This document shows, in pieces, positions 4,182 to 43,060 of a stretch of 51,828 bases of DNA; within the stretch, counting starts at the first letter, position 1, and every line of letters starts with the position of its first letter. The notes under the pieces are model-generated. The model made no database searches. It was not told the DNA's origin and worked only from the letters and a program-made list of their open reading frames with translations. Made by a program: the position numbers and the translations under genes. This stretch comes from Deltaproteobacteria bacterium. Lineage in GTDB: Bacteria; Myxococcota_A; Polyangia; DRWM01. Location of the stretch: positions 1-51,828 of the forward strand of contig JAFDER010000007.1 in assembly GCA_019310245.1 (NCBI GenBank), read 5' to 3'.

Positions 4182-4371
4182 TCCTCCGGTCGTCCCGGCT
4201 AAGATTGTCAGCTCCGCCGTTCGAGGATACACTTTCACGAGGGGGATCGTGAGTTGGGAACAAGCCGCCGGAGTCGATCGTCTACGAGATCGACGAACAG
4301 TGGAACCTCGCGCGTTTCGCGTTCGTCATGATCGGCAGCGAGTCGATGATCAGAACGGAGGTCTTCAGGTT

Positions 4372-24203: not shown

Positions 24204-24222
24204 GGGTTCTGCCGTTGTATCA

Positions 24223-24228
24223 ATTATA
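24223..24228 (-). promoter_or_regulatory. Perfect TATAAT hexamer 19 nt upstream of the NifH-like ATG (candidate -10 box)
   Basis: The minus strand reads ...GACGGCC TATAAT TGATACAACGGCAGAACCC ATG. No convincing -35 and no SD. A consensus A/T hexamer is conspicuous in this G+C-rich DNA. Confidence 0.25.
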
Positions 24229-24319
24229 GGCCGTCGCGTGAAGCGCGGGTGCTTCCGGAGAATAATCCTAGCGAAACGGGGTTTGTAGCCGTCAGGAGGG
24301 CGGGCACCGCGGAAAAGGC

Positions 24320-25363
24320 ATGAAGAAGAGGCTCGCATTCCTCGCGCTCTCGCTCCTGGTCCACGCGGGCCTTCTCTCGGTGATCCTGCTCGTCGGGCCT
24401 CCGGTGATCGAGGGTGATCCCGGGCTGATCGTCCACTACGTCGAGACCGGGGCCCGGCCCGAGGCCGCGCCGCCGCCCACGGAGCCCTCACCGCCTGACA
24501 TGCCGGAGCCGCGCCCCGCGCGCCGGCAGGTGAGTCATTCTTCACCCGAGACCGTCATCGAGGTCGAGCCTCCTGCGGCGCCTCCAGCGCCGGCCCCGGC
24601 CGCCGGGAAGACGAAACCGCAGTTCAGGTCGAATCCCTTCAAGCTCTCCTACGAGGTGCTCTCGGAGACACTCGGGCCTCTCGAGGTGGAGCAGGGGCCG
24701 CTGGACGTGGACGGCATGCTCGGGGCCTACTTCGACGAGCTCGAGGCGTACAAGACCGTCAGGTACGGCACGTTCGACCCCGGGCTCCTGACGCTCCGCG
24801 ACGGCATGGAGGACTTCTGGCACCCCGACTTCGGGCAGATCCACGACAGCCCGCTCAAGGGCGCGGTGGGCAAGATGCTCGCGAGCTGGCAGAAGACGGC
24901 GCAGACCTACGGGCATACCGGCTCACCCGTCGAGGATCCGCCCACGAACCAGTTCTACGGAGACATGAAGCCGCAGGACCTGGGCATTCTTGACACGTAC
25001 GAGCAGCTGGAGAAGTCGGACGCGTTCACGACGCGTGCCAGGCTCGTCGTGCGCATCGACTTCGACGGCAAGGGAGGCTGGAAGGTCGAGAAGCTCTCGG
25101 GATCGGGGTACTCGGAGGTGGACCACGCCGCGATGGAGGCCGTGCACGAGGCCCTCGAGGCGCACGACGACCTCGTGCCGGGGTACGAGGCGAGGACCAG
25201 GTGGGCGCTCGAGGCGGACTTCACGGTCCTGCCGCCGCTGCCCGTCGCGGGTTTTACCTTCGACCTCGCGCTGGGCGTGTTCGAGACGGCCTATCCCCTC
25301 AAGAAGACGGTCAGGCGCAGGATCAAGCTCCTGGCCGTGGCCCTGCCACAGCCCGAGGCATAG
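24320..25363 (+). CDS. TonB-like membrane-anchored protein (tentative)
   Basis: N-terminal TM helix LAFLALSLLVHAGLLSVILLV. Pro-rich spacer (PEAAPPPTEPSPPDMPEPRP, EPPAAPPAPAPA). The C-terminal block VVRIDFDGKGGWKVEKLSGSGYSEVDHAAMEAVHEA resembles TonB_C. Confidence 0.5.
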   Translation: MKKRLAFLALSLLVHAGLLSVILLVGPPVIEGDPGLIVHYVETGARPEAAPPPTEPSPPDMPEPRPARRQVSHSSPETVIEVEPPAAPPAPAPAAGKTKPQFRSNPFKLSYEVLSETLGPLEVEQGPLDVDGMLGAYFDELEAYKTVRYGTFDPGLLTLRDGMEDFWHPDFGQIHDSPLKGAVGKMLASWQKTAQTYGHTGSPVEDPPTNQFYGDMKPQDLGILDTYEQLEKSDAFTTRARLVVRIDFDGKGGWKVEKLSGSGYSEVDHAAMEAVHEALEAHDDLVPGYEARTRWALEADFTVLPPLPVAGFTFDLALGVFETAYPLKKTVRRRIKLLAVALPQPEA

Positions 25364-28074: not shown

Positions 28075-29358
28075 TCAGCCCTCGATCCGTTCCACGAACG
28101 CCTCGACCCGCGTGCGGATCTGCTCCACGTCCTCCTGCGAGTAGTCCGTGTCGATGCGCAGGACCGGGATCCCGTCCTTCTCGAGCGCCCGCTCCACCGG
28201 CCCTGCCTCGATCTGGTACGGGTGGCAGAACTGCAGCCCGTAGTGGATGACGCCGTCGGCCTTCAGATCCTTCGCCATCTCGCGCACGTGCTCGAGCCTG
28301 CCCGGGTTGGGAGTGAACACGGCGCAGTCGATCTCGAAGTAGCGGTCCACGATGTTCTCGACGAGCGCCTCCACGCTGCCGCCGGAATCGTCCACCAGGT
28401 TCCGGGTGCCCCTCTCGCCCACGCACGACTCCTCGCCCACGATCACCGCCTTCGTGGAGCTCTCCACGATGTGAGGCACCTTCCAGTTCGGGATGGCCAT
28501 GGGGCAGCCGCTCATCAGGATGCGCGGCGCGCCCTTCGGCCTGACGCCCTGGCCGGCCTCGATCCGCTTCTCGAGCTCGTCGCAGATCTTGTTGATCGAG
28601 TCGGTGAAGCGCGGCGGGTCGTCGTAGAAGGAGATCTGGTTCGCCAGGAGCGCGTCCAGCCCCGAGATGGGGGCGGGATCGGCGGCCCGCAGCCTCGAGA
28701 GCCTGTGCAGGGCCCCGCGCTTCCCGTTCACGGTCCGGATGCCCTCCCTGAGCGAATCGACCGTGATCGTCCTGCCCGAGACGTCCTCGAGCTTCTTCAG
28801 GAACTTGACGTACTCGCTCCTCAGGATGGCCCGTCCCTCCTCGCTCTTCATCTGCGGCATGTCCATGACGAAGAGGTCGCTGACGTGCTCCGCGAAGATC
28901 TCGTACGCCTTCTTCTTGCCGTCGCAGGTGTTCTCCCCCACGATGAGGTCGCTTGCCAGCATGTACGGGCACACCTTCCCGAGCTGGAAGCCGAAGAAGC
29001 CCTTGATGAGCGAGCAGGTGTTGCGCGGCAGGTACCTCTCGGCCTCCTCGAGGCCCCAGGGCGCGCCGGCACACAGGCCGACGCAGATCCCGTGAACGGC
29101 GAGCACGAGCTCCTCGGGCACGAAGACGCAGAAGGTGCCCACCACCTTCCTGCCCTCCGCCCGGGCGTCCACGAGCTCCTTGATCCTGAGGCCGTGCACC
29201 TCCGTGATCACGAAGTCGAGGTACTTCATGCCCTCGGGCCGGTTCTCCTGGCTGTGGTACACGTCCTTGTAGCCCTGTCCGAGGACCTGCATGAGCGTGT
29301 CGTGGGCCTCGAGATCGATCCCGAGCTCTTCCCACATGGGACGGTAGTCTGTCGACAT
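28075..29358 (-). CDS. 2-hydroxyacyl-CoA dehydratase family protein (single-subunit, YjiM / double-cubane-cluster-protein-like)
   Basis: Typical HGD-D-family blocks VGTFCVFVPEELV, GENTCDGKKKAYE, ILMSGCPMA, VIHYGLQFCHPY and many conserved Cys. SD GGGAGG before the ATG at 29358. Confidence 0.8.
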   Translation of the reverse strand: MSTDYRPMWEELGIDLEAHDTLMQVLGQGYKDVYHSQENRPEGMKYLDFVITEVHGLRIKELVDARAEGRKVVGTFCVFVPEELVLAVHGICVGLCAGAPWGLEEAERYLPRNTCSLIKGFFGFQLGKVCPYMLASDLIVGENTCDGKKKAYEIFAEHVSDLFVMDMPQMKSEEGRAILRSEYVKFLKKLEDVSGRTITVDSLREGIRTVNGKRGALHRLSRLRAADPAPISGLDALLANQISFYDDPPRFTDSINKICDELEKRIEAGQGVRPKGAPRILMSGCPMAIPNWKVPHIVESSTKAVIVGEESCVGERGTRNLVDDSGGSVEALVENIVDRYFEIDCAVFTPNPGRLEHVREMAKDLKADGVIHYGLQFCHPYQIEAGPVERALEKDGIPVLRIDTDYSQEDVEQIRTRVEAFVERIEG

Positions 29359-30832: not shown

Positions 30833-31657
30833 TCAGCGCAGCTGCTCGCAGCCGAAGTCGCCTGACGTGAGGATGCGGCGCGTCTCCGCGGTGGCGGCGT
30901 CGATGATCTCGGGGCCTCGCGAGAGCTTCCCGGGCCCCGACGCAGGCACGTCCGGGGCGAGGACGAGCACCTCGAGGCCCCGCTCGCGCAGCCCGTTCAC
31001 GACCCGCTGCTGCTCCGGGTAGATGAGGCAGTGCAGGGCGGCCCGCAGGCCGGCTGCGATCGATGTGGGAGGCCCGGGCGGGTAGGCCTGCGAGAGATAG
31101 TTGACCAGGATGACGTCGATGTCGTCCCGGGATGCCAGGAAGCCCAGCGGCACCTTCTCCACCGTGCCTCCGTCCCAGTACACGTGATCGCCGATGGGAG
31201 CCGGCGCGAACATCCCTGGCAGGGCGCAGGAGGCGCGCACCGCGGGGGCGAGGGGCCCGGAGTCGAACACGTGCAGCCTGCGCTCGTTCAGGTCGAATGC
31301 CGTGGCGGCGAAGTCGAACCGGCAGTCGTCGAAGGTGCCGGCGGTGAGGATCCTGCCGAGCTTCCTCTCCATGCGCTTGCCGCGGATCAGCCCGCCGGGC
31401 CTGCCGGACGCATCCCAGGGCATGGGCAGATCCACCAGGTCCGTCACGCCGATCGACAGGAGCGCTGTGCGGATCGTGGGCGGGTCCATGCCCGACGCCC
31501 ACATGGCCCCCACGAGGGCTCCCGCGCTGGCGCCGGTCACGGCCACCGGCCTCACGCCGAGGTCGTGGATCGTGGTGACGAAGCCGGCGTGGGCGAAGAA
31601 GCCGAAGTAGCCCGAGGCCAGGCACACGCCGACGCGTCTTCCGGTCAGGTCCACCAT
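30833..31657 (-). CDS. Patatin-like phospholipase
   Basis: GxSxG nucleophile VTGASAGALVG. The Asp of the dyad lies in VYWDGGTVEKVP. The glycine-rich oxyanion motif is degenerate (LASGYFGFFAHAG). Start taken at MVDLTGRR inside ORF 30833..31801. Confidence 0.75.
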   Translation of the reverse strand: MVDLTGRRVGVCLASGYFGFFAHAGFVTTIHDLGVRPVAVTGASAGALVGAMWASGMDPPTIRTALLSIGVTDLVDLPMPWDASGRPGGLIRGKRMERKLGRILTAGTFDDCRFDFAATAFDLNERRLHVFDSGPLAPAVRASCALPGMFAPAPIGDHVYWDGGTVEKVPLGFLASRDDIDVILVNYLSQAYPPGPPTSIAAGLRAALHCLIYPEQQRVVNGLRERGLEVLVLAPDVPASGPGKLSRGPEIIDAATAETRRILTSGDFGCEQLR

Positions 31658-31821
31658 GGGCACAGGACTATACGTCCCTGCCCGGACGGTCAACCGCTGG
31701 CCACTGAGCTTGTTTCGCCTCCGTGCGGAACATCGCCCGCCGCCGGTTGTCCAAGCTTTGGCCGGGGCGGGTTGTCCAACGGGTACGACCCAGAAGAACA
31801 ACTGGATGCAAAGGAGGGGCT

Positions 31822-33942
31822 TTGGCTGAGGCGGTGCAGCTCAAAGCTTACGGTCGCGTCGATCTCGACGGCACTCACAGGGCGGTCGTCGAGGCGGACT
31901 GGCCGGAGATTCCAACCACGGGGGACGACTCCCGGACAACCTACCTCGAGCTCGAAAGCGGAGGCATGAGCTGTGCCGTCCTGCTGAGCGAGCACAGAAG
32001 CTCGACCGAGGGCAGGATCTACCTCGACCGCTACAAGCAGTGGCACCTCGGAATCCGCGACGGGGATCCGGTGCACGTGCGCGTGGCCACGCCGGAGCAG
32101 GCCGGCAAGGTGGTGCTGAGGGTCCCGGCCAACTTCTCCAGGCGCGACGTGGTGCGCTTCATCGGAAAGCCGCTGACGCGCGGCGAGAAGACGGCGCTCT
32201 ACACGTTCGGCGGCGATGCGCGCCTGATCGAGGTCGCCGAGGCGGGCCCGGGCAGGATCGTGGTGGTCGCCCCGTCCTCGGACGTGAGGACCACAACCTC
32301 GCAGGTCGATGACGTGCCGGTCACGTACAAGGACATCGGCGGCCTCGGCAGGGAGGTGGAGCGGATCCGCGAGGTGGTGGAGTATCCGTTCCGGTTTCCG
32401 GAGCTGTTCCAGCACCTGGGTGTGTCGCCTCCGCGCGGCATCATCCTGAGCGGCCCGCCCGGAACGGGCAAGACGCTCATCGCCAGGGCGCTCGCCAACG
32501 AGTCCGGGGCGCGGTTCTTCTCAGTGAGCGGCCCGGAGATCTACTCCAAGTGGTACGGCAAGAGCGAGGAGAACCTCAGGAACATCTTCGCAAGCGCCGT
32601 GCGCGACGCCCCCTCCATCGTGGTGATCGACGAGCTGGATGCGCTCGTTCCGATCAGGGAGAAGACTCACGGCGATCAGGAGCAGAGGATCGTCGCCACG
32701 TTCCTCACGCAGATGGACGGGCTGAAGGAGATGAAGGACGTGGTCGTGGTGGGCACGACCAACCGGATCGACGCGATCGACCCCGCGCTCAGGCGCGGAG
32801 GACGGTTCGAGTGCGAGGTCCACATCGGCGTGCCGGACGAGGCGGGCCGGCAGGAGATCCTGGCCATCCACTCCCGCAGGATGCCGCTGGGGCCGGACGT
32901 GGACCTCGGGCAGGCGGCGTCCATGTCGTCGGGGTTCACGGGTGCCGATCTCGCGTCGCTGTGCCGCGAGGCGGCCTACTCCGCACTCAGGAGGGTGTTT
33001 CCGGGTCTGTCCACGGAGGGCGGGGAGCTCGACGGGCTCGACCGGCTCGAGGTGTGTCAGTCCGATTTCGAGAAGGCGCTCTCCTCGGTCCCCCCGTCGG
33101 CCCTCAAGGAGTTCCTCATCGAGATCCCCGCGGCGGGCTGGGACGACGTGGGAGGGCACGGGGAGACGAAGAAGCTCCTCGTCGAGAACATCTGCTACGC
33201 CGTCACACGGCGCGAGGCGTTCCGCAGCGCCGGCATCGAGCCGGCGAAAGGCATCCTTCTCTACGGGCCTCCCGGCACGGGCAAGACGCTCCTCGCGAGG
33301 GCCGTGGCGAGTGAGTGCGGCGCGCAATTCATCGCGCTCAGGGGCCCGGAGATCCGCTCGAGGTGGCTGGGGGAGTCCGAGGAGCGGATCAGGCAGCTGT
33401 TCAAGAAGGCCCGCACCGTTGCTCCCTGCGTGATCTTCATCGATGAGATCGACGCCGTGGTGCCGGCGCGCGGCGGGTCACCCTCGAGCTCCACCGACGG
33501 GGTCGTCAACCAGCTCCTCGCTGAGATGGACTCCATCGAGGGCGGGGCGGGCGTGTGCATCGTCGGGGCCACGAACCGGATCGGGATCCTCGATCCCGCC
33601 GTTCTCAGGCCGGGCCGCTTCGACTGCCTCGTGGAGGTGGGCCTGCCGGACGGGCGCGACAGGGAGGAGATCTTCGCCGTGCACGTGCGCGGCAAGCCCC
33701 TGGCACCCGACGTGGATCTCGCCCTGCTCGCGGCCCTGACCGAGGGCCTGTCCGGAGCCCAGATCGCGGAGATCTGCCGGCTGGCCGCGTGGTCGTCGCT
33801 CAGGGAGGCGGGATTCGAGGCAGAGGGCCTCGTCGTCGCCGCGGGCCACTTCGGCAGCGCGCTCGAGCGCGTCCGCAGCACAGCGGACGGGGTGGCACGC
33901 TTGCTCAGGGTCGTGGCCGCGGGTGGGGAGGACGGAACATGA
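31822..33942 (+). CDS. Cdc48/VCP-like AAA+ ATPase (N-domain plus two AAA modules)
   Basis: N-domain GRIYLDRYKQWHLGIRDGDPVHVRV. D1 has GPPGTGKTLIARALA and VVIDELD. D2 has GPPGTGKTLLARAVA and IFIDEID. Both carry SRH-like GRF(E/D) motifs. The start is TTG 31822 or GTG 31834, after AAGGAGG at 31811-31817. The stop overlaps the next ATG. Confidence 0.85.
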   Translation: MAEAVQLKAYGRVDLDGTHRAVVEADWPEIPTTGDDSRTTYLELESGGMSCAVLLSEHRSSTEGRIYLDRYKQWHLGIRDGDPVHVRVATPEQAGKVVLRVPANFSRRDVVRFIGKPLTRGEKTALYTFGGDARLIEVAEAGPGRIVVVAPSSDVRTTTSQVDDVPVTYKDIGGLGREVERIREVVEYPFRFPELFQHLGVSPPRGIILSGPPGTGKTLIARALANESGARFFSVSGPEIYSKWYGKSEENLRNIFASAVRDAPSIVVIDELDALVPIREKTHGDQEQRIVATFLTQMDGLKEMKDVVVVGTTNRIDAIDPALRRGGRFECEVHIGVPDEAGRQEILAIHSRRMPLGPDVDLGQAASMSSGFTGADLASLCREAAYSALRRVFPGLSTEGGELDGLDRLEVCQSDFEKALSSVPPSALKEFLIEIPAAGWDDVGGHGETKKLLVENICYAVTRREAFRSAGIEPAKGILLYGPPGTGKTLLARAVASECGAQFIALRGPEIRSRWLGESEERIRQLFKKARTVAPCVIFIDEIDAVVPARGGSPSSSTDGVVNQLLAEMDSIEGGAGVCIVGATNRIGILDPAVLRPGRFDCLVEVGLPDGRDREEIFAVHVRGKPLAPDVDLALLAALTEGLSGAQIAEICRLAAWSSLREAGFEAEGLVVAAGHFGSALERVRSTADGVARLLRVVAAGGEDGT

Positions 33943-35291
33943 GCCGCGCCATGGCAGCGCTCGCCTCCCTGGCCCTGTGCCTCGGCGGCGCGGCCGCCTC
34001 GGGGGCCGCGGCTCCCGTCGAGCTGGACATCGTCATCCTCGTTGACACCTCGGAGTCGATGCAAGGATTCGGCAAGCAGGCCCTGGCCGGGTTCGCGGAC
34101 GGGCTGGGAGGCTCGAGCCGCATGGCGCTTGCCACGTTCGGAGAGGAGGCCCGGATGGTGCGGCCGCTCAGGACCGTGACGGGCAAGGACCGGGCCAGGT
34201 TGATGAAGTCCATCAGCACGCTCTCCTTCTCCTCGAGCTTCAAGGACATGGAGGGCGGCCTCACCCTCGCGCTCTCGCATCTCGTTCTTCACGCGAGGCC
34301 CGGAGCGGTGCGGGCGGTGGTGCTCGTCACCAACGGCGACGTGCTTCCGTCCGCCGGGCCCGGGACGGCGGAGGACATCGTCAAGCAGCTCACGGACGGG
34401 ATCCTGTACGAGTACCTCGTCGAGGAGATCCCGGTCCACACGGTGGCCTTCGGAGCCTCGGACGTCGATCTCATGCAGGACATCGGGTCGAGCACGGGAG
34501 GCAAGAGCCTCGTGGCGCCCGACGCGATCGCGCTCAATGACGCGCTGTCGCTGCTCTCGGCGACGCTAGCTCCCGCCGCGCCGGAGCAGCCCGCGCCCGT
34601 CCTGGCAGCCGTCGCCCGGGACAGGCCTGCGGAGTCGGACGCGAGGATGGCGTCCACGCTCGTGGCCGCGGCCGGAGGCGCCGCGGCCCTCGCGCTCGTC
34701 ATGGGCATGCTCGTGCTCGCGCTCCTGCTCGTCAACACGGTCCGGCTCGGCGCCCTGGTCAGGAGCCAGCCGCCGGCGGAGCCGAAGGGCGCCTCCGCGC
34801 CCGGCGCCTTCGCGGGCCTGCGCAAGAAGGCGGGCCGGATCACGAAGCTGCTCATGGAGGCGCGCTCGAGCATCGAGGGCTTCAACGTGGACCTCGAGGA
34901 CTACGCCGCGGAGTCGTGGGAGAAGGAGAAGGAGCTGAGCAACAGGTACCACAGCCTGGCCTCGAGCCTCTTCCTGCTCATCGACAATCTCGAGGTGCAG
35001 GAGAGGAGCGGCGGCGCGGGCGACGGCTCCGACTGGCTGGCCAGGCGAGCGCGCAAGATGCTGGCGAGGGAGGGGATCGAGGAGATCACCGTGAGCGAGG
35101 GCGACTCCTTCGACGGCATGTATCACAAGCACGCCGGAGATCGCGACGACGACCGGCCCGAGGGAGCGGTGCTCGAGGTCACCCGCAAGGGTTACTACGT
35201 CATGGGCGTCTCGCCGGACGGGGACGACATCATCCTGAGGCACGCGGAAGTCGTCGTGAGCCGCGGCAATGCAAGGCGCAGGGCGGGATGA
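33939..35291 (+). CDS. Fusion protein: signal/anchor, VWA domain, TM helix, coiled coil and GrpE-like C-terminal domain
   Basis: MSRAMAALASLALCLGGAAASG. VWA motifs VILVDTSESM...VLVTNGD. TM helix LVAAAGGAAALALVMGMLVLALLLV. The C-terminus GIEEITVSEGDSFDGMYHKHAG...VLEVTRKGYYVMG...ILRHAEVVVS aligns by eye with the GrpE beta-domain. ATGA overlap with the AAA+ gene. Confidence 0.8.
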   Translation: MSRAMAALASLALCLGGAAASGAAAPVELDIVILVDTSESMQGFGKQALAGFADGLGGSSRMALATFGEEARMVRPLRTVTGKDRARLMKSISTLSFSSSFKDMEGGLTLALSHLVLHARPGAVRAVVLVTNGDVLPSAGPGTAEDIVKQLTDGILYEYLVEEIPVHTVAFGASDVDLMQDIGSSTGGKSLVAPDAIALNDALSLLSATLAPAAPEQPAPVLAAVARDRPAESDARMASTLVAAAGGAAALALVMGMLVLALLLVNTVRLGALVRSQPPAEPKGASAPGAFAGLRKKAGRITKLLMEARSSIEGFNVDLEDYAAESWEKEKELSNRYHSLASSLFLLIDNLEVQERSGGAGDGSDWLARRARKMLAREGIEEITVSEGDSFDGMYHKHAGDRDDDRPEGAVLEVTRKGYYVMGVSPDGDDIILRHAEVVVSRGNARRRAG

Positions 35292-35307
35292 CCGCACGGA
35301 GGTGAAC

Positions 35308-37269
35308 ATGTCGAGGGCGATCGGGATAGACCTGGGAACCTACAACTCCGCGGCCTCCGTGGCCCTGGGGCGCAACCGCATCGTCATGGTCGAGAGCAGG
35401 TACGGAAGGACCCTGTACGGAAAGAGCTTCCCGTCCTTCGTGCTGTTCGACAGGCAGGGAGGCAAGCAGATGGTGGGGCAGAGGGCGCGCGAGGAGATGT
35501 CGATCAACCCGGATCTCGTCGTGTGGGGCGTCAAGCGCCTCGTGGGGCTGTCCTACCAGCAGGCGCTCGAGATGGGCGAGCTGTCCAGGTTCTCCTACGG
35601 GATCGAGGAGGGCCCGGGAGGCACCATCCTCATCAATGTGGGCGAGGAACGCTACACCCCCTCACACATCCTCGAGTTCATCCTCAGGGAGATCAAGGAG
35701 GACGCCGAGAACCCGAGGGTCAACCCCACGCTGGGAGGTCCCGTGGACGGGGCGGTCATCTCCATCCCGGCCTACTTCAAGGCCATCCGGACGGGGCCGA
35801 TCGTCGAGGCGGCCCGGCGGGCCGGGTTCGAGGAGGTGGACACCATCGCCGAGCCGACCGCTGCGGCCATCCAGTATTGCCTGGAGATCGACAGGGAGGC
35901 CAACCTGCTCGCCTTCGACATCGGAGCGGGCACGCTGGACGTGACGGTCATGCTGGTGGTCAACGAGCAGGACGAGCTCATTCCGGGCGAGTTGTGCACG
36001 TCCGGACACGAGGCCCTGGGCGGGATCGACATGGACGATGCGATCATCTCCCACGTCATCGAGACGCACGGGCTCTCGTCCCTGCGGCACGACCACACCA
36101 TGATGGCCATCCTCAAGGAGGAGGTTGAGAAGGCCAAGATCCGGCTCTCGTCGAGGACGAGGACGACGATCGAGCTCCCGCAGGGACAGTCCATCACGCT
36201 GACGAGGGACGAGCTGGAGGAGGCGCTCTCTCCGCTGCTGGCTCTCTGCCGCGGTCCGGTGAGGGTGGCCCTGCAGCAGTCCGGGCTCGAGGCCGCCGAC
36301 CTGGATCACGTGCTGTTCATCGGCGGGCCGACGCACATGCCCTGCATCCGGCGCGTGGTGCGCGAGGAGCTCGAGAAGCTCGGCGCGCGCAGCGGCGTTC
36401 TCGACGTGATGGCCGGGATGGAGGGTGGCGGACTGCCCATCGATCCCATGGAGTGCGTGGCCCGCGGCGCATCGCTCAAGGCGGGCAAGATCATCGAGCC
36501 CATCGGCAAGGTGATCGCCGAGGGCTACGGCACAATCTACGGTCCGGTCGACGGATGCGACGATTACTACGAGCCGATCATCAGGGAGAACTCGAACTAC
36601 CCCATCTCGGACAGCTCGGTGCTGTGCCACCCCGATCCGAAGGCGCTCGAGGTCCCCATCCCTCTCGTCGCCAAGCGGCCGGACGTGGAGAGGTCCACGG
36701 CCGAGAAGACCGTCTTCAGGTACGAGTACCTGGGAAACTACACGCTGAGCATCACGCCCACGGGCAAGGTGCCGTCCATCGACGTCATCCTGCAGGTCAC
36801 CGACGACAAGAGGATCGTCGCGAACCTCGTGCATGCCCAGACGCACCAGAAGGTCAGGTTCAAGGGGCTCGATCTGCTGATGGGAGAGGAGATACAGCTC
36901 CAGGAGCACACCCCGCCCGAGCGGTGGACCAAGAAGGACGTGGAGCGGTTCCGGGACACCGTGCGGCACAAGAAGAGCCGCTGGACGCGGACGCACCTCG
37001 AGCACCACATCCACGTGGCACAGGAGGCACTCGCGCTCGTCTCGGGCCCGGACAATGCCAAGGTGGTGGCTGCGATGTCCGAGGTCAGGAGCGCGGTCTC
37101 GAGGCCCGTCGAGAACGAGTACAGGTTCCCGAACGACGACTGTCCCAACATCTCGAACCGGATCAAGGAGCTGCTGGACACGCTCAGGCAGCCCGAGGTC
37201 GGCAAGATCTCCGAGGAGGAATTTCGCCGTTACCTGGACCAGCTCATCACGATCGCGCGGATGGACTGA
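35308..37269 (+). CDS. Hsp70-family chaperone, non-housekeeping paralogue
   Basis: AIGIDLGTYNS, AVISIPAYF, DTIAEPTAAAIQY, LAFDIGAGTLDVTV, LGGIDMDD, FIGGPTHMPCIRR, ECVARGASL, then a beta-sandwich-like and helical C-terminal region. GGAGG lies 5 nt before the ATG. Confidence 0.85.
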   Translation: MSRAIGIDLGTYNSAASVALGRNRIVMVESRYGRTLYGKSFPSFVLFDRQGGKQMVGQRAREEMSINPDLVVWGVKRLVGLSYQQALEMGELSRFSYGIEEGPGGTILINVGEERYTPSHILEFILREIKEDAENPRVNPTLGGPVDGAVISIPAYFKAIRTGPIVEAARRAGFEEVDTIAEPTAAAIQYCLEIDREANLLAFDIGAGTLDVTVMLVVNEQDELIPGELCTSGHEALGGIDMDDAIISHVIETHGLSSLRHDHTMMAILKEEVEKAKIRLSSRTRTTIELPQGQSITLTRDELEEALSPLLALCRGPVRVALQQSGLEAADLDHVLFIGGPTHMPCIRRVVREELEKLGARSGVLDVMAGMEGGGLPIDPMECVARGASLKAGKIIEPIGKVIAEGYGTIYGPVDGCDDYYEPIIRENSNYPISDSSVLCHPDPKALEVPIPLVAKRPDVERSTAEKTVFRYEYLGNYTLSITPTGKVPSIDVILQVTDDKRIVANLVHAQTHQKVRFKGLDLLMGEEIQLQEHTPPERWTKKDVERFRDTVRHKKSRWTRTHLEHHIHVAQEALALVSGPDNAKVVAAMSEVRSAVSRPVENEYRFPNDDCPNISNRIKELLDTLRQPEVGKISEEEFRRYLDQLITIARMD

Positions 37270-37273
37270 GCGC

Positions 37274-37879
37274 ATGGTTCCCGCCCAGGGCGCCATGATC
37301 ATCGAGCTCGTGGACGGCTGCCTCTACGAGCAGGCGCTGGGCGTGTCCTTCGACGCGAGCCGGTCGAGCGTGAACCGCAGGCACGTCAAGCTCCTGTACA
37401 GGTTCCTTGACTACCCGTCGGTGCGCGAGGCCCTCAACAGGGCCAAAAGCGTGCTCGCCTCGGAGAAGGGGCTGGACAAGGGCCGCAGGCTCGCGTCCCT
37501 GTCGCGCCATGCCGAGGCGCTGCCCTACCTGCGCGCGGCCGTGCAGGAGGGGGGAGACGTAGAGGATCACGTCCGGCTCGGCCGCGCCCTGGAGCGGCTC
37601 GAGCGGTTCGAGGAGGCCCTGCCGCACTTCGGCCGCGCCGCCTCCGAGCGGGGCCTGGCCATCGACCACCACCGTCTCGGGGCGGCCCTGTTCCATCTCG
37701 GCCGCCTCGATGATTCGCTCCCCCACCTCGAGAGGGCCGTGGAGCTGGGCCACGACATGCTGGACGAGGAGATGCTCATGTCCTGCTGGGAGAGGATCCG
37801 CCTGAGGCGCAGGCGGACGCTCGTCGACAGGGTGCGCGGCCTCGTCGCCGGGCTGCGCGCCTCGCTGGCCGGACGCTAG
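37274..37879 (+). CDS. J-domain-like (HPD-less) N-terminus plus TPR repeats (tentative)
   Basis: LYEQALGVSFDASRSSVNRRHVKLLYRFLDYPSVREALNRAKSVL follows the helix II/III pattern of J domains, but the HPD position reads LDYP. Downstream TPR-like repeats (HAEALPYLRAAVQ, RFEEALPHFGRAAS, RLDDSLPHLERAVE). Starts 4 nt after the Hsp70 stop. Confidence 0.5.
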   Translation: MVPAQGAMIIELVDGCLYEQALGVSFDASRSSVNRRHVKLLYRFLDYPSVREALNRAKSVLASEKGLDKGRRLASLSRHAEALPYLRAAVQEGGDVEDHVRLGRALERLERFEEALPHFGRAASERGLAIDHHRLGAALFHLGRLDDSLPHLERAVELGHDMLDEEMLMSCWERIRLRRRRTLVDRVRGLVAGLRASLAGR

Positions 37880-37920
37880 TCTTACGTTTCGGGCGTTCTT
37901 GATCTATTCTTCCGGATGAG

Positions 37921-39156
37921 ATGGCCGACCGGACCGATAGCATGGAGTTCGACGAGAGCGGCGTGATCCTGCCGCGCGACGAGAAGCTGCTCGAGTACGT
38001 GCGGTCCAACTCCGGCAGGTGGGTCGCGGTCAGCGCGCAGGACGGGATGCTGCTCCTGCGCAGGGCGGACAAGGGCGGCGGCGGCCGCGTGCTGATGAGC
38101 GGCGAGATCAAGCGCGAGGGCTGGCTCGTCGACATCCTCAGCTTCGTGTGCAACCAGGGGCTCACGGGCAAGATCGTGGTCGTGAGCCGCGACGTCAGGA
38201 GGGAGCTGTTCTTCGACAAGGGGCAGCTGAGGCTGGCGAGCTCGACGGCAACGGGCGATCTGCTCGGCGAGTTCATCCTGAGCGAGGGGCTCATCACCAA
38301 GGAGCAGCTCGACGCGGCGCTCAAGGAGATCGGGCCGGGCAAGAGGCTGGGGCAGGTCCTGGTCGACAAGGGCATCCTGACCCGCCACGACATCTACAAC
38401 CTGCTCAACAAGAAGGTGGAGAAGATCTTCTTCGACGCCATCGTCCTGCACGACGGCGTCTACACCTTCGACGAGGACATCGACCTGTCGAAGCTGCCCG
38501 CCTCGATCAGCATCGACACGAAAACGCTGCTGATGAAGGGCCTGACCAAGAGGGACGAGCTGACCTACTACCGGGAGACGGTACCCAGGCCCGGCGGCAT
38601 GCTCAGCAATCAGCTCAAGGCCCTGGACGCCTGCTCGAGCGTGGAGAAGGACTTCGTCTCCAAGGTCGACGGCTCGAGGACCCTCGCCGAGATCGACGAC
38701 CTGCTGCACCTGGGCGACTTCGAGACCGTCAGGATCGCCCGGAAGCTGGCATCCAAGGGCCTGCTCGTGGTCATCCTCGACAAGGAGATGGAGGCGGATG
38801 CCCTCAGGTCGGTGGTTCACGACTTCAACACCGCCATCCGCGTCATCTACGACGCGATCCAGGGCAGGGTGAAGGCGGACGAGCTGACGGAGCTGGGCAG
38901 GGAGTTCATGAGCAAGAGCACCCAGCAGCTCGAGGGGCCCGAGAAGGTCACCCTCAAGCGGACGGGTGAGTTCGACTTCCACAACGTGATGAGGATCTAC
39001 GAGGCCAGCGAGGCCAGGGAGAAGATGAACCTCATCATCATGGTCCTGAGCAGGTACATCTCCTTCATCCTCTTCACCGCGAACTCATACCTGCCCGTCA
39101 ACGAGCAGGAGAAGCTCTCCTCGAGCGTCTACGGCAATCTCGACGCCTACTCGTGA
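37921..39156 (+). CDS. DUF4388 (PATAN)-domain protein
   Basis: GEIKREGWLVDILSFVCNQGLTGKIVV...RRELFFDKGQLRLA...GDLLGEFILSEGLITKEQLDAALKE...RLGQVLVDKGILTRHDIYNLL is the typical DUF4388 pattern with MshEN-like LG-x-L motifs. Confidence 0.7.
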   Translation: MADRTDSMEFDESGVILPRDEKLLEYVRSNSGRWVAVSAQDGMLLLRRADKGGGGRVLMSGEIKREGWLVDILSFVCNQGLTGKIVVVSRDVRRELFFDKGQLRLASSTATGDLLGEFILSEGLITKEQLDAALKEIGPGKRLGQVLVDKGILTRHDIYNLLNKKVEKIFFDAIVLHDGVYTFDEDIDLSKLPASISIDTKTLLMKGLTKRDELTYYRETVPRPGGMLSNQLKALDACSSVEKDFVSKVDGSRTLAEIDDLLHLGDFETVRIARKLASKGLLVVILDKEMEADALRSVVHDFNTAIRVIYDAIQGRVKADELTELGREFMSKSTQQLEGPEKVTLKRTGEFDFHNVMRIYEASEAREKMNLIIMVLSRYISFILFTANSYLPVNEQEKLSSSVYGNLDAYS

Positions 39157-39209: not shown

Positions 39210-40148
39210 ATGCAGACGAGAATCCCGGCCATCATCCTGATCCTGCTTCTCGCCCCGGCCTGCGATGCCGACGGCCCCGGCACGCAATGGGACGCCCTGG
39301 ACACGGGTTTTGACCCGGCCCTGGACGCGGCCGGCGACCCGGTCTCCGACGCGGCCGAGGACGCGCCGGCGGACCCGGCGGTCGACGTGCCTGCCGACAC
39401 TCCCGCGGACACCGGAACCGACCCGATGCCGGACGACGGCTGCCTTCACCCCGATCCCGCCGGCGGATACGACCCGTCGGGAGGCTCGGGAGGCTCGACG
39501 GGTCCCGGAGGCACGTGGGACTACTCCGCCAGCTCCGGCTCCAGGCACGTCTTTGTCTACATCCCCACGTCCTACGCCCCGGACGTCACGGCCTCGCCCG
39601 TGATCTTCCTGTTCAACGAGGAGATAGGCGACTGGCGTGCCATCGCGGACGGCGATGGCATCATCCTCGTCGACCTCGACGAGTACAACGACGTCGAGGC
39701 CTACGTGGACAAGCTCAACGCGGTCGCCACCGACCTCGAGGCCGGATACAACGTGGACCGCGCGCGCTACTACTGGGCCGGGTGGAGCGCCGGCGGAAAC
39801 ATCGTCGTCATGCTGGGCGCCGGGAACCAGGACTTCCTGGCGGGCACCATGGTCTTCCCCGGCACGGGAGGCGACTACGCTCGTACCGATCTCGAGGCCA
39901 GGAGCACGGCCCACGCTTCGGATCCGTGCCTGCACATGATGGCGATGTTCTACGCCTGCGGCAGCGCCGACCCGAACTACGATTACGGCGTTCCGGTGCA
40001 GTACGAGGCCAACGCGTGGCGCGACTGGTTCGGCTACGAGACCACCTTCGTGCTCGTCGAGGGCTCGAACCACTACATCAGCGAGACCACCCACCACATC
40101 CGGCAGCAGGCTTGGGACTGGATCGAGGACCACAACCTGTACAACTGA
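39210..40148 (+). CDS. Secreted lipoprotein, esterase/depolymerase-like alpha/beta hydrolase
   Basis: ILILLLAPACD lipobox, acidic Pro/Asp linker, GxSxG in YWAGWSAGGNIVV. SD GGAGGGAG before the ATG. Confidence 0.6.
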   Translation: MQTRIPAIILILLLAPACDADGPGTQWDALDTGFDPALDAAGDPVSDAAEDAPADPAVDVPADTPADTGTDPMPDDGCLHPDPAGGYDPSGGSGGSTGPGGTWDYSASSGSRHVFVYIPTSYAPDVTASPVIFLFNEEIGDWRAIADGDGIILVDLDEYNDVEAYVDKLNAVATDLEAGYNVDRARYYWAGWSAGGNIVVMLGAGNQDFLAGTMVFPGTGGDYARTDLEARSTAHASDPCLHMMAMFYACGSADPNYDYGVPVQYEANAWRDWFGYETTFVLVEGSNHYISETTHHIRQQAWDWIEDHNLYN

Positions 40149-40238: not shown

Positions 40239-41189
40239 ATGAGGCGCGCAGGTGCGATCCTGATCATGCTCACCGTGCTCGGAGCCGCGGCTGGAGCCGG
40301 CGCCGAGGACGCGGCCGGCAGGGGCAAGCTCACCGTGGTGACCACGCCCTGGACCAAGGTCCAGGTGGACGGCGAGGAGGTGGGCAACACGCCGGTCCTG
40401 GGCCACGAGGTGGGCGCGGGCAAGCACGAGGTCACCCTCGTCAACGAGTCGTTCTCCATCTCGTTCTCGATGAGCGTGACGGTCAAGGACGGCAAGGAGA
40501 CGAAGATCTCGCACTCCTTCGAGGTCGAGACCACGAAGGGCGACGGGAGGCTGAACGTGACCACGAGCCCCTGGAGCGAGGTCCACGTGGACGGCGAGTT
40601 CCTGGGCAACACGCCCATCCAGGGCCACAAGCTCGGTCCCGGAAAGCACACGATCAAGCTGGTCAACGAGGGCCTGGGGATCTTGGAGACGCTCAGCGTG
40701 ACGATCGAGGACGGGATGGACACTACCATCTCCAAGCAGCTGGCCTCCACGCCGAAGACCGGCACGCTGAGCGTCACGGCCCATCCGTGGGCGAAGGTGT
40801 TCGTCGGCGGCGTGGAGCTCGGCAACACGCCCATCGTCAAGCACAGGCTCGAGCCCGGCAAGCACAAGGTCAAGCTCGTCAACGACGCGCTCGGCGTCAC
40901 GAAGACCTTCACCGTCAAGATCACGAAGGGCCAGGACACCAAGCTCGTCAAGAACCTCAACAAGAAGGGCGTCAAGGGCCCCCAGGGCACGCTGAGCGTC
41001 ACCACCACGCCCTGGACCACCGTGTACGTTGACGGCAAGAAGGTGGGGAACAGCCCGCTCATCAAGCACAAGCTCAAGGCCGGCAAGCACACTGTCAAGC
41101 TCGTCAACAAGGATCTCGAGATCCAGAAGGTCTTCAAGGTCACGATCAAGAAGGGCGAGGACACGCAGATCGTCAAGAACCTCCTCTAG
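40239..41189 (+). CDS. Secreted protein with four PEGA domains
   Basis: Signal peptide, then four repeats of the form G-x-L-x-V-x-T-x-P-W-(x)-V-x-V-D-G-x-x-(L/V)-G-N-T-P-...-G-K-H-x-V-K-L-V-N. Confidence 0.8.
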   Translation: MRRAGAILIMLTVLGAAAGAGAEDAAGRGKLTVVTTPWTKVQVDGEEVGNTPVLGHEVGAGKHEVTLVNESFSISFSMSVTVKDGKETKISHSFEVETTKGDGRLNVTTSPWSEVHVDGEFLGNTPIQGHKLGPGKHTIKLVNEGLGILETLSVTIEDGMDTTISKQLASTPKTGTLSVTAHPWAKVFVGGVELGNTPIVKHRLEPGKHKVKLVNDALGVTKTFTVKITKGQDTKLVKNLNKKGVKGPQGTLSVTTTPWTTVYVDGKKVGNSPLIKHKLKAGKHTVKLVNKDLEIQKVFKVTIKKGEDTQIVKNLL

Positions 41190-41239
41190 TCTCGCCCTGA
41201 CCCTTGTCGTACAATGGATCTCCCTCCAGGGAGCATGAG

Positions 41240-43060
41240 ATGAAGACCGTCTTCATAGGCGGGGGCCACGGCTGCAAGGCCGTGCTGGAGCTTGTCTTCC
41301 AGCGCAGGCTCGCCGTGCTCAGCCCCGAGATCATCGGGGTCGTGGATCCGGATCCCGAGGCGCCGGGCATGGTGCTCGCGCGCGAGCACGATCTGCCGAC
41401 CTACTCGAGCGTGCGGGAGGCCCTCGCGCTTCCCGGGCTCAAGCTCGTCATCGAGGTGACAGGCATCGACGAGGTCAGGGAGGAGATCGTGCGCCTCGTC
41501 CCGGACCGCGTGCGCGTCATGGACCACGACATGGCGCGCGTGTTCTGGGATCTCGACGAGATGGCCAAGGACCTGCGGGAGGAGCTCAATCGCAAGACCG
41601 TGCTCGAGGCCGTGATCCGGGAGGACCGGCGGAGGCTGCAGGAGCTTCTCGACAGCCTGCCCGACGCGGTGATGGTCCTTGACAACGAGGGGCGCATCGA
41701 GCGCGTCAACCGCAAGTTCGAGGAGGTCACCGAGCTGCCCTGGCCCGAGGTGCGCGGCCTGTTCTGCCGGGACATGGCCCGGGGCAGGGACATCGACTGC
41801 GGTGCCGAGGACTGCCCCCGCAGGCGCGTGCTCGAGACGGGCAGGGCCCTGACCGTGGTCCAGCAGCACTCCTGCATCCGCGCTGCCTGCACCAGCGGCG
41901 ACTGCTACTACCAGATCACCGCCACGCCTGTCCTGAAGGACCGGGTCGTGATCACCTCGCGGGAGGTCACCGAGCAGATCCGCCTCGCCCTCGAGACCGA
42001 GGAACTGGCGAGGCGGGCCCGCCAGATCCTCACCGCCGTGCACGGCATCATCACCATCTCCGATCTCGACGGGCGCTACCAGTTCGCGAATCCCAGCGCC
42101 CAGCGCTTCTTCGGCATTTCCGCTGACGCCTTCATCGGCAAATCGACCACCGAGATCCTCCCGCCCGACGTCGCCGTGCTCTTCGAGGATAACGACCGGG
42201 CGCTCCTCGAGAAGGGGAGTCGCATGACGAGCAAGGAGACGTTCCACCTGGGAGGACACGAGAGCGTGCTCATCACGGAGAGGATCCTGCTCAGGGACTA
42301 CAAGGAGGAGCTGGTCGGGATCTGCCGCGTCTCGCGCAACGTCACCGAGTCGATGCAGCTGCAGGAGGAGATCGTCGAGTCGGAGAAGCACGCGGCCGTG
42401 GGAAAGCTCGCGGCCGGCGTGGCCCACGAGCTCAACAACCCCCTCACGGGAATCCTCACCTTCTCCGAGTCGCTGCTCGACGACACGCCTGAGGACTCGC
42501 CGGTGCGCGAGGACCTCGAGGTCATCGTGCGCGAGACGTTCAGGTGCCGCCAGATCGTGCGCGACCTGCTCGACTTCTCGCGTCAGGCGAGGTCGAATCC
42601 CCAGGTGCTGTCCATGGTGCCCGTCGTCAAGAAGGCCGTCCAGCTCGTCAACAAGCAGGCCGCCTTCCAGGACATCGACTTCGTTCTCGAGCTCGATGAC
42701 GATGCGAGCGTGCGGGCGGACTTCAACCAGCTCCAGCAGGTGATCCTCAATCTCGTCATCAACGCCCGCGACGCGATGGACGGCAGGGGGATGCTCACCG
42801 TCCGCGCGAGGAACGACAGGGATAGGCGCCGGGTGGTGGTCGACGTCTCGGACGAGGGCTGCGGCATCGCGCCGGAGAACATCGACAAGATCTTCGAGCC
42901 TTTCTACTCCACCAAGGGCCAGCGGGGCAACGGCCTCGGTCTGGCCGCGGTGCGTTCGATCATGGAGCAGAACAAGGGCGCCATCGCCGTGCAGAGCACC
43001 CCGGGCGAGGGCTCGATCTTCACCATCTCCCTGCCCGCCGTCAGCTCCACCTCCTCCTGA
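41240..43060 (+). CDS. Cytoplasmic sensor histidine kinase: Rossmann-like N-domain, PAS domains (one Cys-rich), HisKA, HATPase_c
   Basis: MKTVFIGGGHGCKAVLELV...IIGVVDPDPEAPG (Gfo/Idh/MocA-like). Cys-rich PAS FCRD...CGAEDCPRRR...HSCIRAACTSGDCYY. H-box AGVAHELNNPLTGI. N, D, G boxes NLVINARDAM, DEGCGI, GNGLGL. No response regulator is adjacent. Confidence 0.85.
   Translation: MKTVFIGGGHGCKAVLELVFQRRLAVLSPEIIGVVDPDPEAPGMVLAREHDLPTYSSVREALALPGLKLVIEVTGIDEVREEIVRLVPDRVRVMDHDMARVFWDLDEMAKDLREELNRKTVLEAVIREDRRRLQELLDSLPDAVMVLDNEGRIERVNRKFEEVTELPWPEVRGLFCRDMARGRDIDCGAEDCPRRRVLETGRALTVVQQHSCIRAACTSGDCYYQITATPVLKDRVVITSREVTEQIRLALETEELARRARQILTAVHGIITISDLDGRYQFANPSAQRFFGISADAFIGKSTTEILPPDVAVLFEDNDRALLEKGSRMTSKETFHLGGHESVLITERILLRDYKEELVGICRVSRNVTESMQLQEEIVESEKHAAVGKLAAGVAHELNNPLTGILTFSESLLDDTPEDSPVREDLEVIVRETFRCRQIVRDLLDFSRQARSNPQVLSMVPVVKKAVQLVNKQAAFQDIDFVLELDDDASVRADFNQLQQVILNLVINARDAMDGRGMLTVRARNDRDRRRVVVDVSDEGCGIAPENIDKIFEPFYSTKGQRGNGLGLAAVRSIMEQNKGAIAVQSTPGEGSIFTISLPAVSSTSS

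Follow-up and report, generated by a model that had tools for sequence, protein, structure and literature searches.

To our knowledge, cooperation between an Hsp70 and an AAA+ ATPase is known in bacteria only for DnaK with ClpB, and the joint action of Cdc48/p97 and Hsp70 at membranes is considered a eukaryotic trait. A membrane-held Hsp70 cycle operates in the presequence translocase-associated motor (PAM), which combines the mitochondrial Hsp70 Ssc1 with Tim44, Pam18, the GrpE-family factor Mge1 and Pam16, a J-like protein without the HPD motif; we know of no description of a GrpE homologue that is itself anchored in a membrane. Here we analyse a 51,828-nucleotide stretch (the window; contig JAFDER010000007.1, 68% GC) of a metagenome-assembled genome (MAG) labelled ‘Deltaproteobacteria bacterium’ at NCBI. 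Four adjacent genes in the window, g1 to g4, encode a Cdc48/VAT-like double-ring AAA+ ATPase, a GrpE-like protein with a von Willebrand factor A (VWA) domain and a predicted membrane anchor, a divergent Hsp70, and a protein with a J-like domain and tetratricopeptide (TPR) repeats. The module consists of known chaperone types in a combination for which we found no description in the searchable literature, as an earlier note, made from this DNA alone, had supposed.

Our leading interpretation is a tentative one, held with somewhat less than even confidence. We propose that the four genes encode a two-chaperone machine, regulated by an extracytoplasmic function (ECF) sigma factor and tethered to the membrane, in which an Hsp70 and a Cdc48-type ATPase unfold or extract membrane-associated proteins.

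Organisation and distribution of the cassette

The four genes lie on the same strand and are tightly spaced (Table 1). Thus, g1 and g2 share an ATGA overlap at 33939–33942, g2 and g3 are separated by a 16-nt gap (35292–35307) with a GGAGG at 35299–35303, and only 4 nt (37270–37273) lie between g3 and g4; all these junctions agree with the description in the earlier note. All four open reading frames (ORFs) display the GC1/GC2/GC3 pattern of real genes, and a scan for sigma-70 promoters and terminators revealed no internal promoter- or terminator-like site in the operon, the counts being within random expectation. The g1 gene starts with TTG, 5 nt after AGGAGG (31812–31817) and in frame with ORF 31723–33942. 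The same TTG start with a strong GGAGG occurs in the related loci L013, L011, L001 and L014, and a GTG start in L003. The TTG start may keep translation of the AAA+ gene low relative to that of the downstream genes.

For comparison, 98 loci (about 1 Mb in total) were fetched. At least 13 independent lineages from several phyla share the order AAA+, GrpE-like protein, Hsp70 and g4, with Hsp70 identity down to ~42–48%, and overlapping or nearly abutting start and stop codons are the rule in these loci, which together with the junctions in the window supports one coupled, co-localised operon as originally suggested. Two clades belong to the Myxococcota, namely clade A (the window, L013, L008–L010 and L011–L012) and clade B (L001–L003 and L004–L005); the other lineages are represented by L014, L015, L016, L017, L018–L022, L098 and the P0065 contig. 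Members of the Hsp70 family, ~650 aa long and aligned over their full length at 40–93% identity, come from MAGs named as Deltaproteobacteria/Polyangia, Sedimentisphaerales, Bryobacteraceae, Acidoferrales and “Saccharimonadales”, and all cassette members seen are from uncultured organisms. In an all-against-all comparison of the ORFs of 20 loci, only the four cassette families recurred across 13 lineages, which points to a self-contained four-gene cassette placed in varying contexts. As judged from sequence, the conserved core is a Cdc48/VAT-like AAA+ ATPase, a transmembrane GrpE-like protein, a divergent Hsp70 and a J-fold protein.

A metagenome scan with patterns derived from the Hsp70 alignment proved too general: 6 of the 80 loci belonged to the family (L018–L023), two more (L024 and L025) were of interest, and the rest were ordinary Hsp70s. 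L024 (5863–9614) and L025 (35–3777) carry a two-gene variant, in which a gene for a Cdc48-like AAA+ ATPase, with 46–47% identity to that of L015, is followed directly by one for a more distant Hsp70 (34–35% identity to g3); tblastn detected no GrpE-like or J-like gene in either. The cassette of L098 (5883–12013) sits on a 1.49-Mb contig, and an Alba-family gene on the same contig raises the possibility of an archaeal host. Frameshifts interrupt its AAA+ and g4 genes, and the g4 J-like domain is found in another frame, in the 213-nt ‘gap’ that follows the Hsp70 gene, a pattern suggestive of errors in long-read assembly.

The four cassette proteins

The g1 product contains two AAA domains (Pfam AAA PF00004, E 1.1e-88), with the Walker A motif GPPGTGKT at residues 211 and 482 and the Walker B motifs DELD and DEID. 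Its closest solved structure is Thermoplasma VAT (5g4g, E 8e-173), to which it is ~50% identical across the ATPase rings, followed by p97; its description as a two-ring Cdc48-type ATPase is therefore sound. Walker A/B, sensor-1 and the arginine fingers are kept in 8 orthologues, as are the aromatic pore loops, KWYG in D1 and RW[LIF]G in D2 (RWLG in the window). With its catalytic motifs and both aromatic pore loops conserved, g1 is predicted to be a threading unfoldase with two active rings. The top NCBIfam model is TIGR01243 (CDC48 subfamily), with a score of 700.1 bits that lies below the cutoff of 802.65. The N-domain is family-specific and has a conserved GRVDLDGTHR motif; in the window it has no Pfam match at E ≤ 1, and the TIGR01243 and VAT alignments begin at residues 43 and 64, respectively. 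In Cdc48/VAT-type ATPases the N-domain combines a double-psi barrel with a beta-clam (CDC48_N and CDC48_2), and the orthologues give weak CDC48_2 matches (in L015 the score of 22.6 bits just exceeds the gathering score, 22.4). At the C-terminus the orthologues vary, and neither a penultimate Tyr nor an HbYX motif, by which archaeal members dock on the 20S proteasome, is present. Coupling to a proteasome or protease was ruled out on the grounds that both an HbYX motif and a protease neighbour are missing, and g1 is for the same reasons best regarded as a stand-alone unfoldase.

The g2 product is the only one of the four with a transmembrane segment, none being detected by hydropathy in g1, g3 or g4. 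Its C-terminal domain matches Pfam GrpE with 39.8 bits (gathering score, 25.8), relatives scoring 45–55 bits. The domain also aligns with the canonical GrpE of L007, a grpE-dnaJ locus used as reference (hhalign E 3.5e-6, 33% identity over 112 columns; tblastn, 30% identity). By these alignments it is a true GrpE homologue, as the earlier note had read it. When full-length g2 was used for a profile search against solved structures, only VWA domains and no GrpE were retrieved. The protein differs from the soluble, ~200-aa GrpE architecture in its 450-aa length and in having a signal-like segment, a VWA domain and a transmembrane helix, just after which lie basic residues. Because the signal-like N-terminus and the helix bracket the VWA domain, the latter is predicted to be extracytoplasmic and the GrpE-like domain cytoplasmic.

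How general this architecture is was seen in an exhaustive phmmer search with the GrpE-like domain. Among 1.84 billion searched, 163 representatives matched at E ≤ 1e-3, and 68 passed the stricter limit of E ≤ 1e-10. The domain is C-terminal in every representative, and in 54 of the 66 best it is directly preceded by a hydrophobic transmembrane helix. The remainder of the protein varies. A signal-like segment, VWA domain and helix are found in the window, L015 and the P0065 contig; L014 has a degenerate VWA domain without the metal-ion-dependent adhesion site (MIDAS); P0161/L017 has 4–5 transmembrane helices and is still flanked by the AAA+ and Hsp70 genes; and L016 has a single N-terminal transmembrane helix with an extracytoplasmic part of only ~20 residues. 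On this comparison the conserved feature of g2 is the membrane anchor, the VWA domain being optional. In the window the VWA domain scores 48 bits in Pfam (gathering score, 23.8) and matches VWA and integrin I-domains among solved structures. Its MIDAS (D36-T-S-E-S40) is intact, with residues invariant or nearly so in an 11-sequence alignment. The VWA–GrpE fusion is rare, being represented by 13 clusters among 5.8 billion proteins and, when searched with subfamily-specific patterns, by a relative in 1 of 185,579 GTDB species representatives.

The g3 product matches Pfam HSP70 (226 bits) and keeps the equivalents of DnaK D8, K70, E171, D194 and T199, all invariant in the family, so that its nucleotide-binding motifs are intact as claimed. 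Also kept are the equivalents of K55 and E267, the upper salt bridge that in DnaK reportedly slows nucleotide release (Brehmer 2001, cited via PMC8215388). When aligned with E. coli DnaK (2kho), g3 lacks residues 285–293, a stretch overlapping the GrpE-signature loop in subdomain IIB. This GrpE-signature motif comprises DnaK residues 290–295, and HscA and HscC, which lack it, do not use GrpE (PMC8215388). Furthermore, g3 is far under the equivalog cutoffs (240 against 648 bits for PRK00290, 232 against 823 for TIGR02350, and 191 against 709 for HscA), which fits a dedicated, non-housekeeping Hsp70. The interdomain linker, which in DnaK we take to be 389-VLLL-392 (a segment outside the nucleotide-binding part verified with 2kho), is replaced by ...EPIGKVIAE... 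in the alignment. The C-terminus of the family is a conserved amphipathic helix, EEFRRYLDQLIxIAxM, without EEVD, and EEVD-type docking of TPR repeats on the Hsp70 tail was ruled out accordingly.

The g4 product had been described as a J-like/TPR protein. The TPR part is recognised by Pfam, and the J part is seen as a fold. Thus, the DnaJ profile (PF00226) has no match in 9 g4 members even at E ≤ 10, and hhalign against one J-domain gives E 0.003 with a probability of 10%. A profile search of g4 against solved structures returned ~18 sub-threshold J-domain matches, aligned over helices I–II. Two AlphaFold2 (AF2) models, both built on shallow 8-sequence alignments, are confident, with predicted local distance difference test (pLDDT) scores of 92.5 (whole g4) and 87 (N-domain). 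With the separate N-domain model, ~30 of the top 36 Foldseek matches in the PDB are J-domains, the best being 6jmg (probability 0.99, TM 0.71); 5nro_B, a DnaK-bound J-domain, is among them. The E-values are weak (0.24–6), as the domain is small (~60 residues, helical). The whole protein retrieved only TPR proteins, including MamA, and the J fold surfaced with the N-domain model.

The N-terminal domain of ~65 residues is kept in every lineage, with the consensus RYEEALGV...NRxHVRLL...VREALNRAK, and the J fold is kept in L015, L016, L019–L021, L023 and L098, even where the TPR part is altered. The C-terminal part consists of TPR repeats in the window; the repeat unit is the same in L098, where it extends over ~600 aa, and L015 has a transmembrane helix and L016 a short tail. 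The HPD motif is missing in every family member, the loop between helices II and III reading LDYP, RDHP, RDHA, RREP, RTSP, RSRP, RDNP, RAHP or HDSD. A word-based search with g4 found close relatives only. On the models, g4 is a J-fold protein of the HPD-less, Pam16-like kind. The claim that the operon supplies a complete canonical Hsp70 cycle is not supported, with the J-like domain lacking HPD and the Hsp70 lacking both the IIB GrpE-signature loop and the VLLL linker.

Could these be ordinary housekeeping dnaK-grpE-dnaJ genes that lie beside an AAA+ gene by chance? Public annotation would suggest as much, since it labels g2 ‘nucleotide exchange factor GrpE’, g3 ‘Hsp70 family protein/DnaK’ and g4 ‘TPR protein’. 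We find this hardly credible, and here the earlier note had judged alike. In addition to the shortfall of g3 against DnaK, g2 scores only 12–17 bits against NCBIfam GrpE equivalogs with cutoffs of 164–194. Moreover, g2 is membrane-anchored, g4 has neither the DnaJ architecture nor HPD, the family is rare, as the phmmer counts indicate, and a real grpE-dnaJ locus (L007) looks different. No canonical dnaK, grpE or dnaJ was found on the source contig, the one part of the genome covered here.

Proposed mechanism and genomic surroundings

The cassette products would, in the scheme we favour, form a self-contained chaperone machine at the cytoplasmic face of the inner membrane. As a single-pass membrane protein, g2 would bind the nucleotide-binding domain of g3 through its cytoplasmic GrpE-like domain, tethering the Hsp70 to the membrane and probably resetting it by nucleotide exchange. 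The HPD-less J-fold module of g4 would dock on the Hsp70, and the TPR repeats would recruit clients or bridge to the AAA+ ATPase. Membrane-associated clients would then be passed by the Hsp70 to the g1 hexamer, which would thread and unfold them, or pull them from the membrane. In the Myxococcota variant, the extracytoplasmic, MIDAS-containing VWA domain may act as a lineage-specific ligand-binding or sensing module. Transcription by an ECF sigma factor would make the cassette part of an envelope-stress or extracytoplasmic-signal response. The sequences themselves show the gene structure, the domain identities, the integrity of the catalytic motifs, the conserved synteny, the membrane anchor as seen by hydropathy and the conserved promoter-like motif; from these we infer all contacts between the proteins, the exchange activity, the kind of client, the direction of hand-over and the ECF dependence.

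Having proposed this machine, we would note several points that weigh against it. First, stimulation of the Hsp70 ATPase by g4 cannot be assumed because HPD is absent. Second, the GrpE-like domain may only tether, since g3, like HscA and HscC (PMC8215388), is without the GrpE-signature loop; the replacement of the VLLL linker is a further departure. Third, an exchange factor or tether is not universally needed, as L024 and L025 have no detectable GrpE-like gene. Fourth, the neighbour census gave no client, channel or protease gene nearby, the topology of g2 is a hydropathy-based one, and no cultured host is known. Fifth, the promoter considered below is a consensus match rather than a mapped promoter, and the pattern is confined to the Myxococcota, being missing at the other loci.

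A bolder version can be formulated as a prokaryotic machine for membrane-protein dislocation, a functional bacterial counterpart of retrotranslocation in endoplasmic-reticulum-associated degradation (ERAD) or of the mitochondrial import motor. Here, an Hsp70 tethered by the transmembrane GrpE protein and served by a Pam16-like J protein would feed envelope proteins to the Cdc48-type unfoldase upon ECF-mediated induction by envelope stress, with the periplasmic VWA domain selecting or sensing the client in the variant of the window. We consider this version unlikely.

The upstream region provides the supportive evidence for regulation. The pattern GGAAC-N16/17-YGTCYA, for which 0.12 matches are expected per window, has exactly one match upstream of the AAA+ gene, at the same position and in the same orientation, in the window, L001, L003, L005, L011/L012 and L013, with only 4 further matches across the 98 loci. 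A GGAACTT −35 element with a CGTC −10 element is a hallmark of ECF promoters, including the CarQ promoter of M. xanthus (PMC3397946). Since the upstream genes of the two Myxococcota clades differ (a divergent patatin gene in one and frr in the other), the motif travels with the cassette. The operon thus appears, from this motif, to be transcribed from an ECF-sigma promoter. The putative −10 element is contained in the first copy of an exact direct repeat, GGTTGTCCAA, whose copies are 25 nt apart; the second copy is kept in L013 and degenerate in L011. The only other ECF-type match in the window, GGAAC-N17-CGTCTA, is found at the start of an ORF for a CAP/MopE-motif protein.

An ECF-type promoter would also be in keeping with transmembrane signalling, whereby binding of an extracytoplasmic ligand would alter the GrpE-like dimer and thereby gate the action of Hsp70 and AAA+ on one regulatory client, in the manner of DnaK and sigma-32. 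The intact MIDAS of the Myxococcota VWA domain and the variable extracytoplasmic modules on g2, which are typical of sensors, fit such a device, as do the genes for PatA_N/DUF4388, PAS histidine kinase and Ser/Thr kinase proteins downstream of the cassette in the clade of the window. Many members, however, have almost no extracytoplasmic part (L016) or a VWA domain without MIDAS (L014), no regulator is conserved beside the cassette, and a double-ring threading unfoldase would be heavy machinery for a switch. We therefore consider signalling decidedly unlikely as the general role, and possible for the VWA-bearing subfamily only.

The membrane-tethered machine must also be set against what surrounds it. 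In the window, the cassette is preceded by a divergent gene for a patatin-like phospholipase, with a likely ATG near 31657 deduced from the MVDL... N-terminus common to L013. The divergent arrangement is also present in L011/L012 and L013; on the P0065 contig a patatin gene is located 3.7 kb downstream of the cassette, and the other lineages have none. Further upstream are genes for a NifH/frxC-family ATPase and a 2-hydroxyglutaryl-CoA dehydratase D-component, the latter also neighbouring the cassette in L013 and L022. Downstream, a PatA_N/DUF4388 gene begins 41 nt past g4 and is followed by genes for a hydrolase-like protein, a PEGA-repeat protein and a PAS histidine kinase. This run also follows the cassette in L008/L009 and L013 and is not found outside that clade. 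It may be co-transcribed with the cassette, as only a weak terminator-like hairpin (37864–37880) intervenes.

Two unrelated lineages have HepT/MNT-type toxin–antitoxin pairs beside the cassette or not far from it (L004, 5645–6488; L016, 1–1645 and 15263–15929), and L016 has a SIR2-NACHT-TPR gene ~4 kb upstream. Taken as defence-island context these are weak hints. They nevertheless belong to the case for an NTPase-plus-chaperone ‘thresholding’ system of defence or conflict, in which the Hsp70 and its cofactors would sense an invader protein and the AAA+ ATPase would unfold an essential or invader target. The module is also compact, patchy across phyla and variably flanked, patatin genes are near the cassette in the window, L011, L013 and the P0065 contig, and GTPase-centred conflict systems have a private set of Hsp70, GrpE and proteins fused to DnaJ or TPR domains (Kaur et al. 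2020, PMC7159879). Against this, PADLOC-DB 2.0 gives only generic AAA matches (IetA, TRIP13) for g1 and nothing for g2–g4, the patatin or the PatA_N neighbour, and the neighbour census found no recurrent nuclease, pore-forming or NADase effector. The flanking genes include no GTPase, in the window or related loci, and no STAND partner, and searches of plasmid, phage and IMG/VR sequences turned up no copy. Several lineages have the cassette in housekeeping surroundings (rpsB-tsf-pyrH-frr), and the ECF-type promoter better suits an envelope response. Taking both sides together, we regard a defence role, which the earlier note had also considered, as quite unlikely.

In clade B (L001, 14059–21080; L003, 14050–20878; L004, 6758–12852), the cassette lies downstream of rpsB-tsf-pyrH-frr and is convergent with an operon for PilY1 and minor pilins (N_methyl); genes for a PilB-like T2SSE ATPase and a 480-aa AAA protein are a few kb upstream. 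PilY1 of some species carries a VWA domain. The convergence, the PilB-like ATPase and this VWA domain would each be in line with a lineage-specific helper for surface structures (type IV pili, exopolysaccharide (EPS) or development), like SglK/GrpS and the StkA Hsp70s of M. xanthus, where Hsp70 homologues affect S-motility and EPS (PMC8265645, PMC4319316). Disagreeing with this assignment, however, no pilus genes lie beside the cassette in the clade of the window or in any member outside the Myxococcota, and the core is kept in phyla without myxobacterial development. Nor is g3 SglK-like. A canonical DnaK of the PRK00290 type, SglK is able to complement E. coli dnaK (PMC8265645), whereas g3 is far below the PRK00290 cutoff; SglK/GrpS orthology was rejected for this reason, and the sglK lead of the earlier note falls with it. 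A pilus or development helper is thus a very unlikely explanation.

Table 1 Positions of the cassette genes, their domains, the upstream elements and the neighbouring genes in the window
Feature	Position	Strand	Description and basis
g1	31822–33942	+	Cdc48/VAT-like double-ring AAA+ ATPase, 706 aa
g1 parts			N-domain, residues 1–165; D1, ~207–338; D2, ~478–607
g2	33939–35291	+	Membrane-spanning VWA/GrpE-like protein, 450 aa, MBW2260546.1
g2 signal-peptide-like hydrophobic segment	33939–34013	+	Residues 1–25; hydropathy, sequence
g2 VWA domain	34026–34526	+	Residues 30–196, predicted extracytoplasmic; Pfam
g2 transmembrane helix	34653–34739	+	Residues ~239–267; Kyte–Doolittle maximum 2.69
g2 GrpE-like domain	34920–35261	+	Residues 328–441, predicted cytoplasmic; Pfam
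g3	35308–37269	+	Divergent Hsp70, 653 aa, MBW2260547.1
g3 parts			Nucleotide-binding domain, residues ~1–390; substrate-binding-domain-beta-like, ~391–530; helical C-terminal region, 531–653
g4	37274–37879	+	J-like domain and TPR protein, 201 aa, MBW2260548.1
g4 J-domain-fold module without HPD	37316–37462	+	Residues ~15–63; AF2, Foldseek, profile search
g4 TPR repeats	37469–37747	+	Residues ~66–158; Pfam TPR_2, TPR_1
ECF-sigma-type promoter candidate	31727–31753	+	GGAAC (−35), 16 nt, TGTCCA (−10)
Exact direct repeat GGTTGTCCAA	31745–31754 and 31770–31779	+	Two copies
Second ECF-type match	4257–4284	+	Start of ORF 4156–6303
NifH/frxC-family ATPase gene	23370–24554	−	
2-Hydroxyglutaryl-CoA dehydratase D-component gene	28075–29358	−	
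Patatin-like phospholipase gene	30833–31657	−	
PatA_N/DUF4388 gene	37921–39156	+	
Hydrolase-like gene	39210–40148		
PEGA-repeat protein gene	40239–41189		
PAS histidine kinase gene	41204–43060		

Comparison with described systems

Among known systems, DnaK-DnaJ-GrpE with ClpB is alike in having an Hsp70, GrpE-type and J-type cofactors and a double-ring threading AAA+ ATPase, presumably acting jointly on non-native proteins. Several discrepancies set the cassette apart. First, its AAA+ ATPase is of the classic-clade Cdc48/VAT type, not an Hsp100, and lacks an M-domain. Second, all of its genes are in one operon. Third, its GrpE-like protein is membrane-anchored, and neither its J-like protein nor its Hsp70 has the usual elements (HPD in the former, the GrpE-signature loop and VLLL linker in the latter). 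Compared with PAM, in which the tether is Tim44, Mge1 is soluble and there is no AAA+ unfoldase, the cassette is without a linked translocon. E. coli HscC with the tail-anchored DjlB/DjlC (PMC8215388) resembles the cassette in pairing a specialised Hsp70 without the GrpE-signature loop with a membrane-anchored cofactor at the inner membrane. There, however, anchoring falls to a true J-protein with HPD, and neither an exchange factor nor an AAA+ ATPase takes part; in the cassette the anchor is the GrpE-like protein, and only L015 has a transmembrane segment on its J-like protein.

Two further kinds of system share the gene arrangement in part. The GAP1-N2 GTPase conflict systems (PMC7159879) likewise place a private set of Hsp70, GrpE and J/TPR proteins beside an NTPase. 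Unlike in the cassette, the NTPase is a GTPase, the partners carry FNIII repeats, neither a Cdc48-type AAA+ ATPase nor a membrane-anchored GrpE is present, and the hosts are mostly actinobacteria and firmicutes. In the AAA+/VWA pairs (MoxR-VWA, RavA-ViaA, CbbQ-CbbO, NorQ-NorD and BchI-BchD), an AAA+ gene stands beside a VWA-containing gene, as it does here, and the earlier note had appealed to them as a functional couple. That candidate was ruled out by topology and by VWA loss across the family. Thus, hydropathy predicts that the membrane divides the VWA domain from the AAA+ ATPase, the transmembrane helix being placed between the VWA and GrpE-like domains; many members, among them L014, L016 and L017, have a degenerate VWA domain or none; and the AAA+ ATPase is classic-clade, not MoxR-type.

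The rings of g1, with their identity to VAT and their aromatic pore loops, relate the cassette to Cdc48/p97 in ERAD and to archaeal VAT with the 20S proteasome. Eukaryotic Cdc48 extracts membrane proteins together with Hsp70 and J-proteins, a role to which the one proposed here may be likened. In contrast to these systems, the cassette has no linked ubiquitin-like system, Ufd1/Npl4-type adaptor, HbYX motif, proteasome or protease, and its N-domain is divergent. As a compact, expressible set of four proteins, it could serve for studying how an Hsp70 passes substrates to a Cdc48-type ring without ubiquitin, what a membrane-fixed GrpE fold does and what role J-like domains without HPD have; the present analysis also corrects public labels that present its members as plain GrpE, DnaK and TPR proteins. 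The cassette would work like DnaK with ClpB and, by analogy, like PAM and ERAD, while being a member of none of them. A conserved bacterial operon that hard-wires a Cdc48/VAT-type unfoldase to a dedicated Hsp70, a membrane GrpE homologue and an HPD-less J-fold protein would add a new branch to the Hsp70 network beside these systems.

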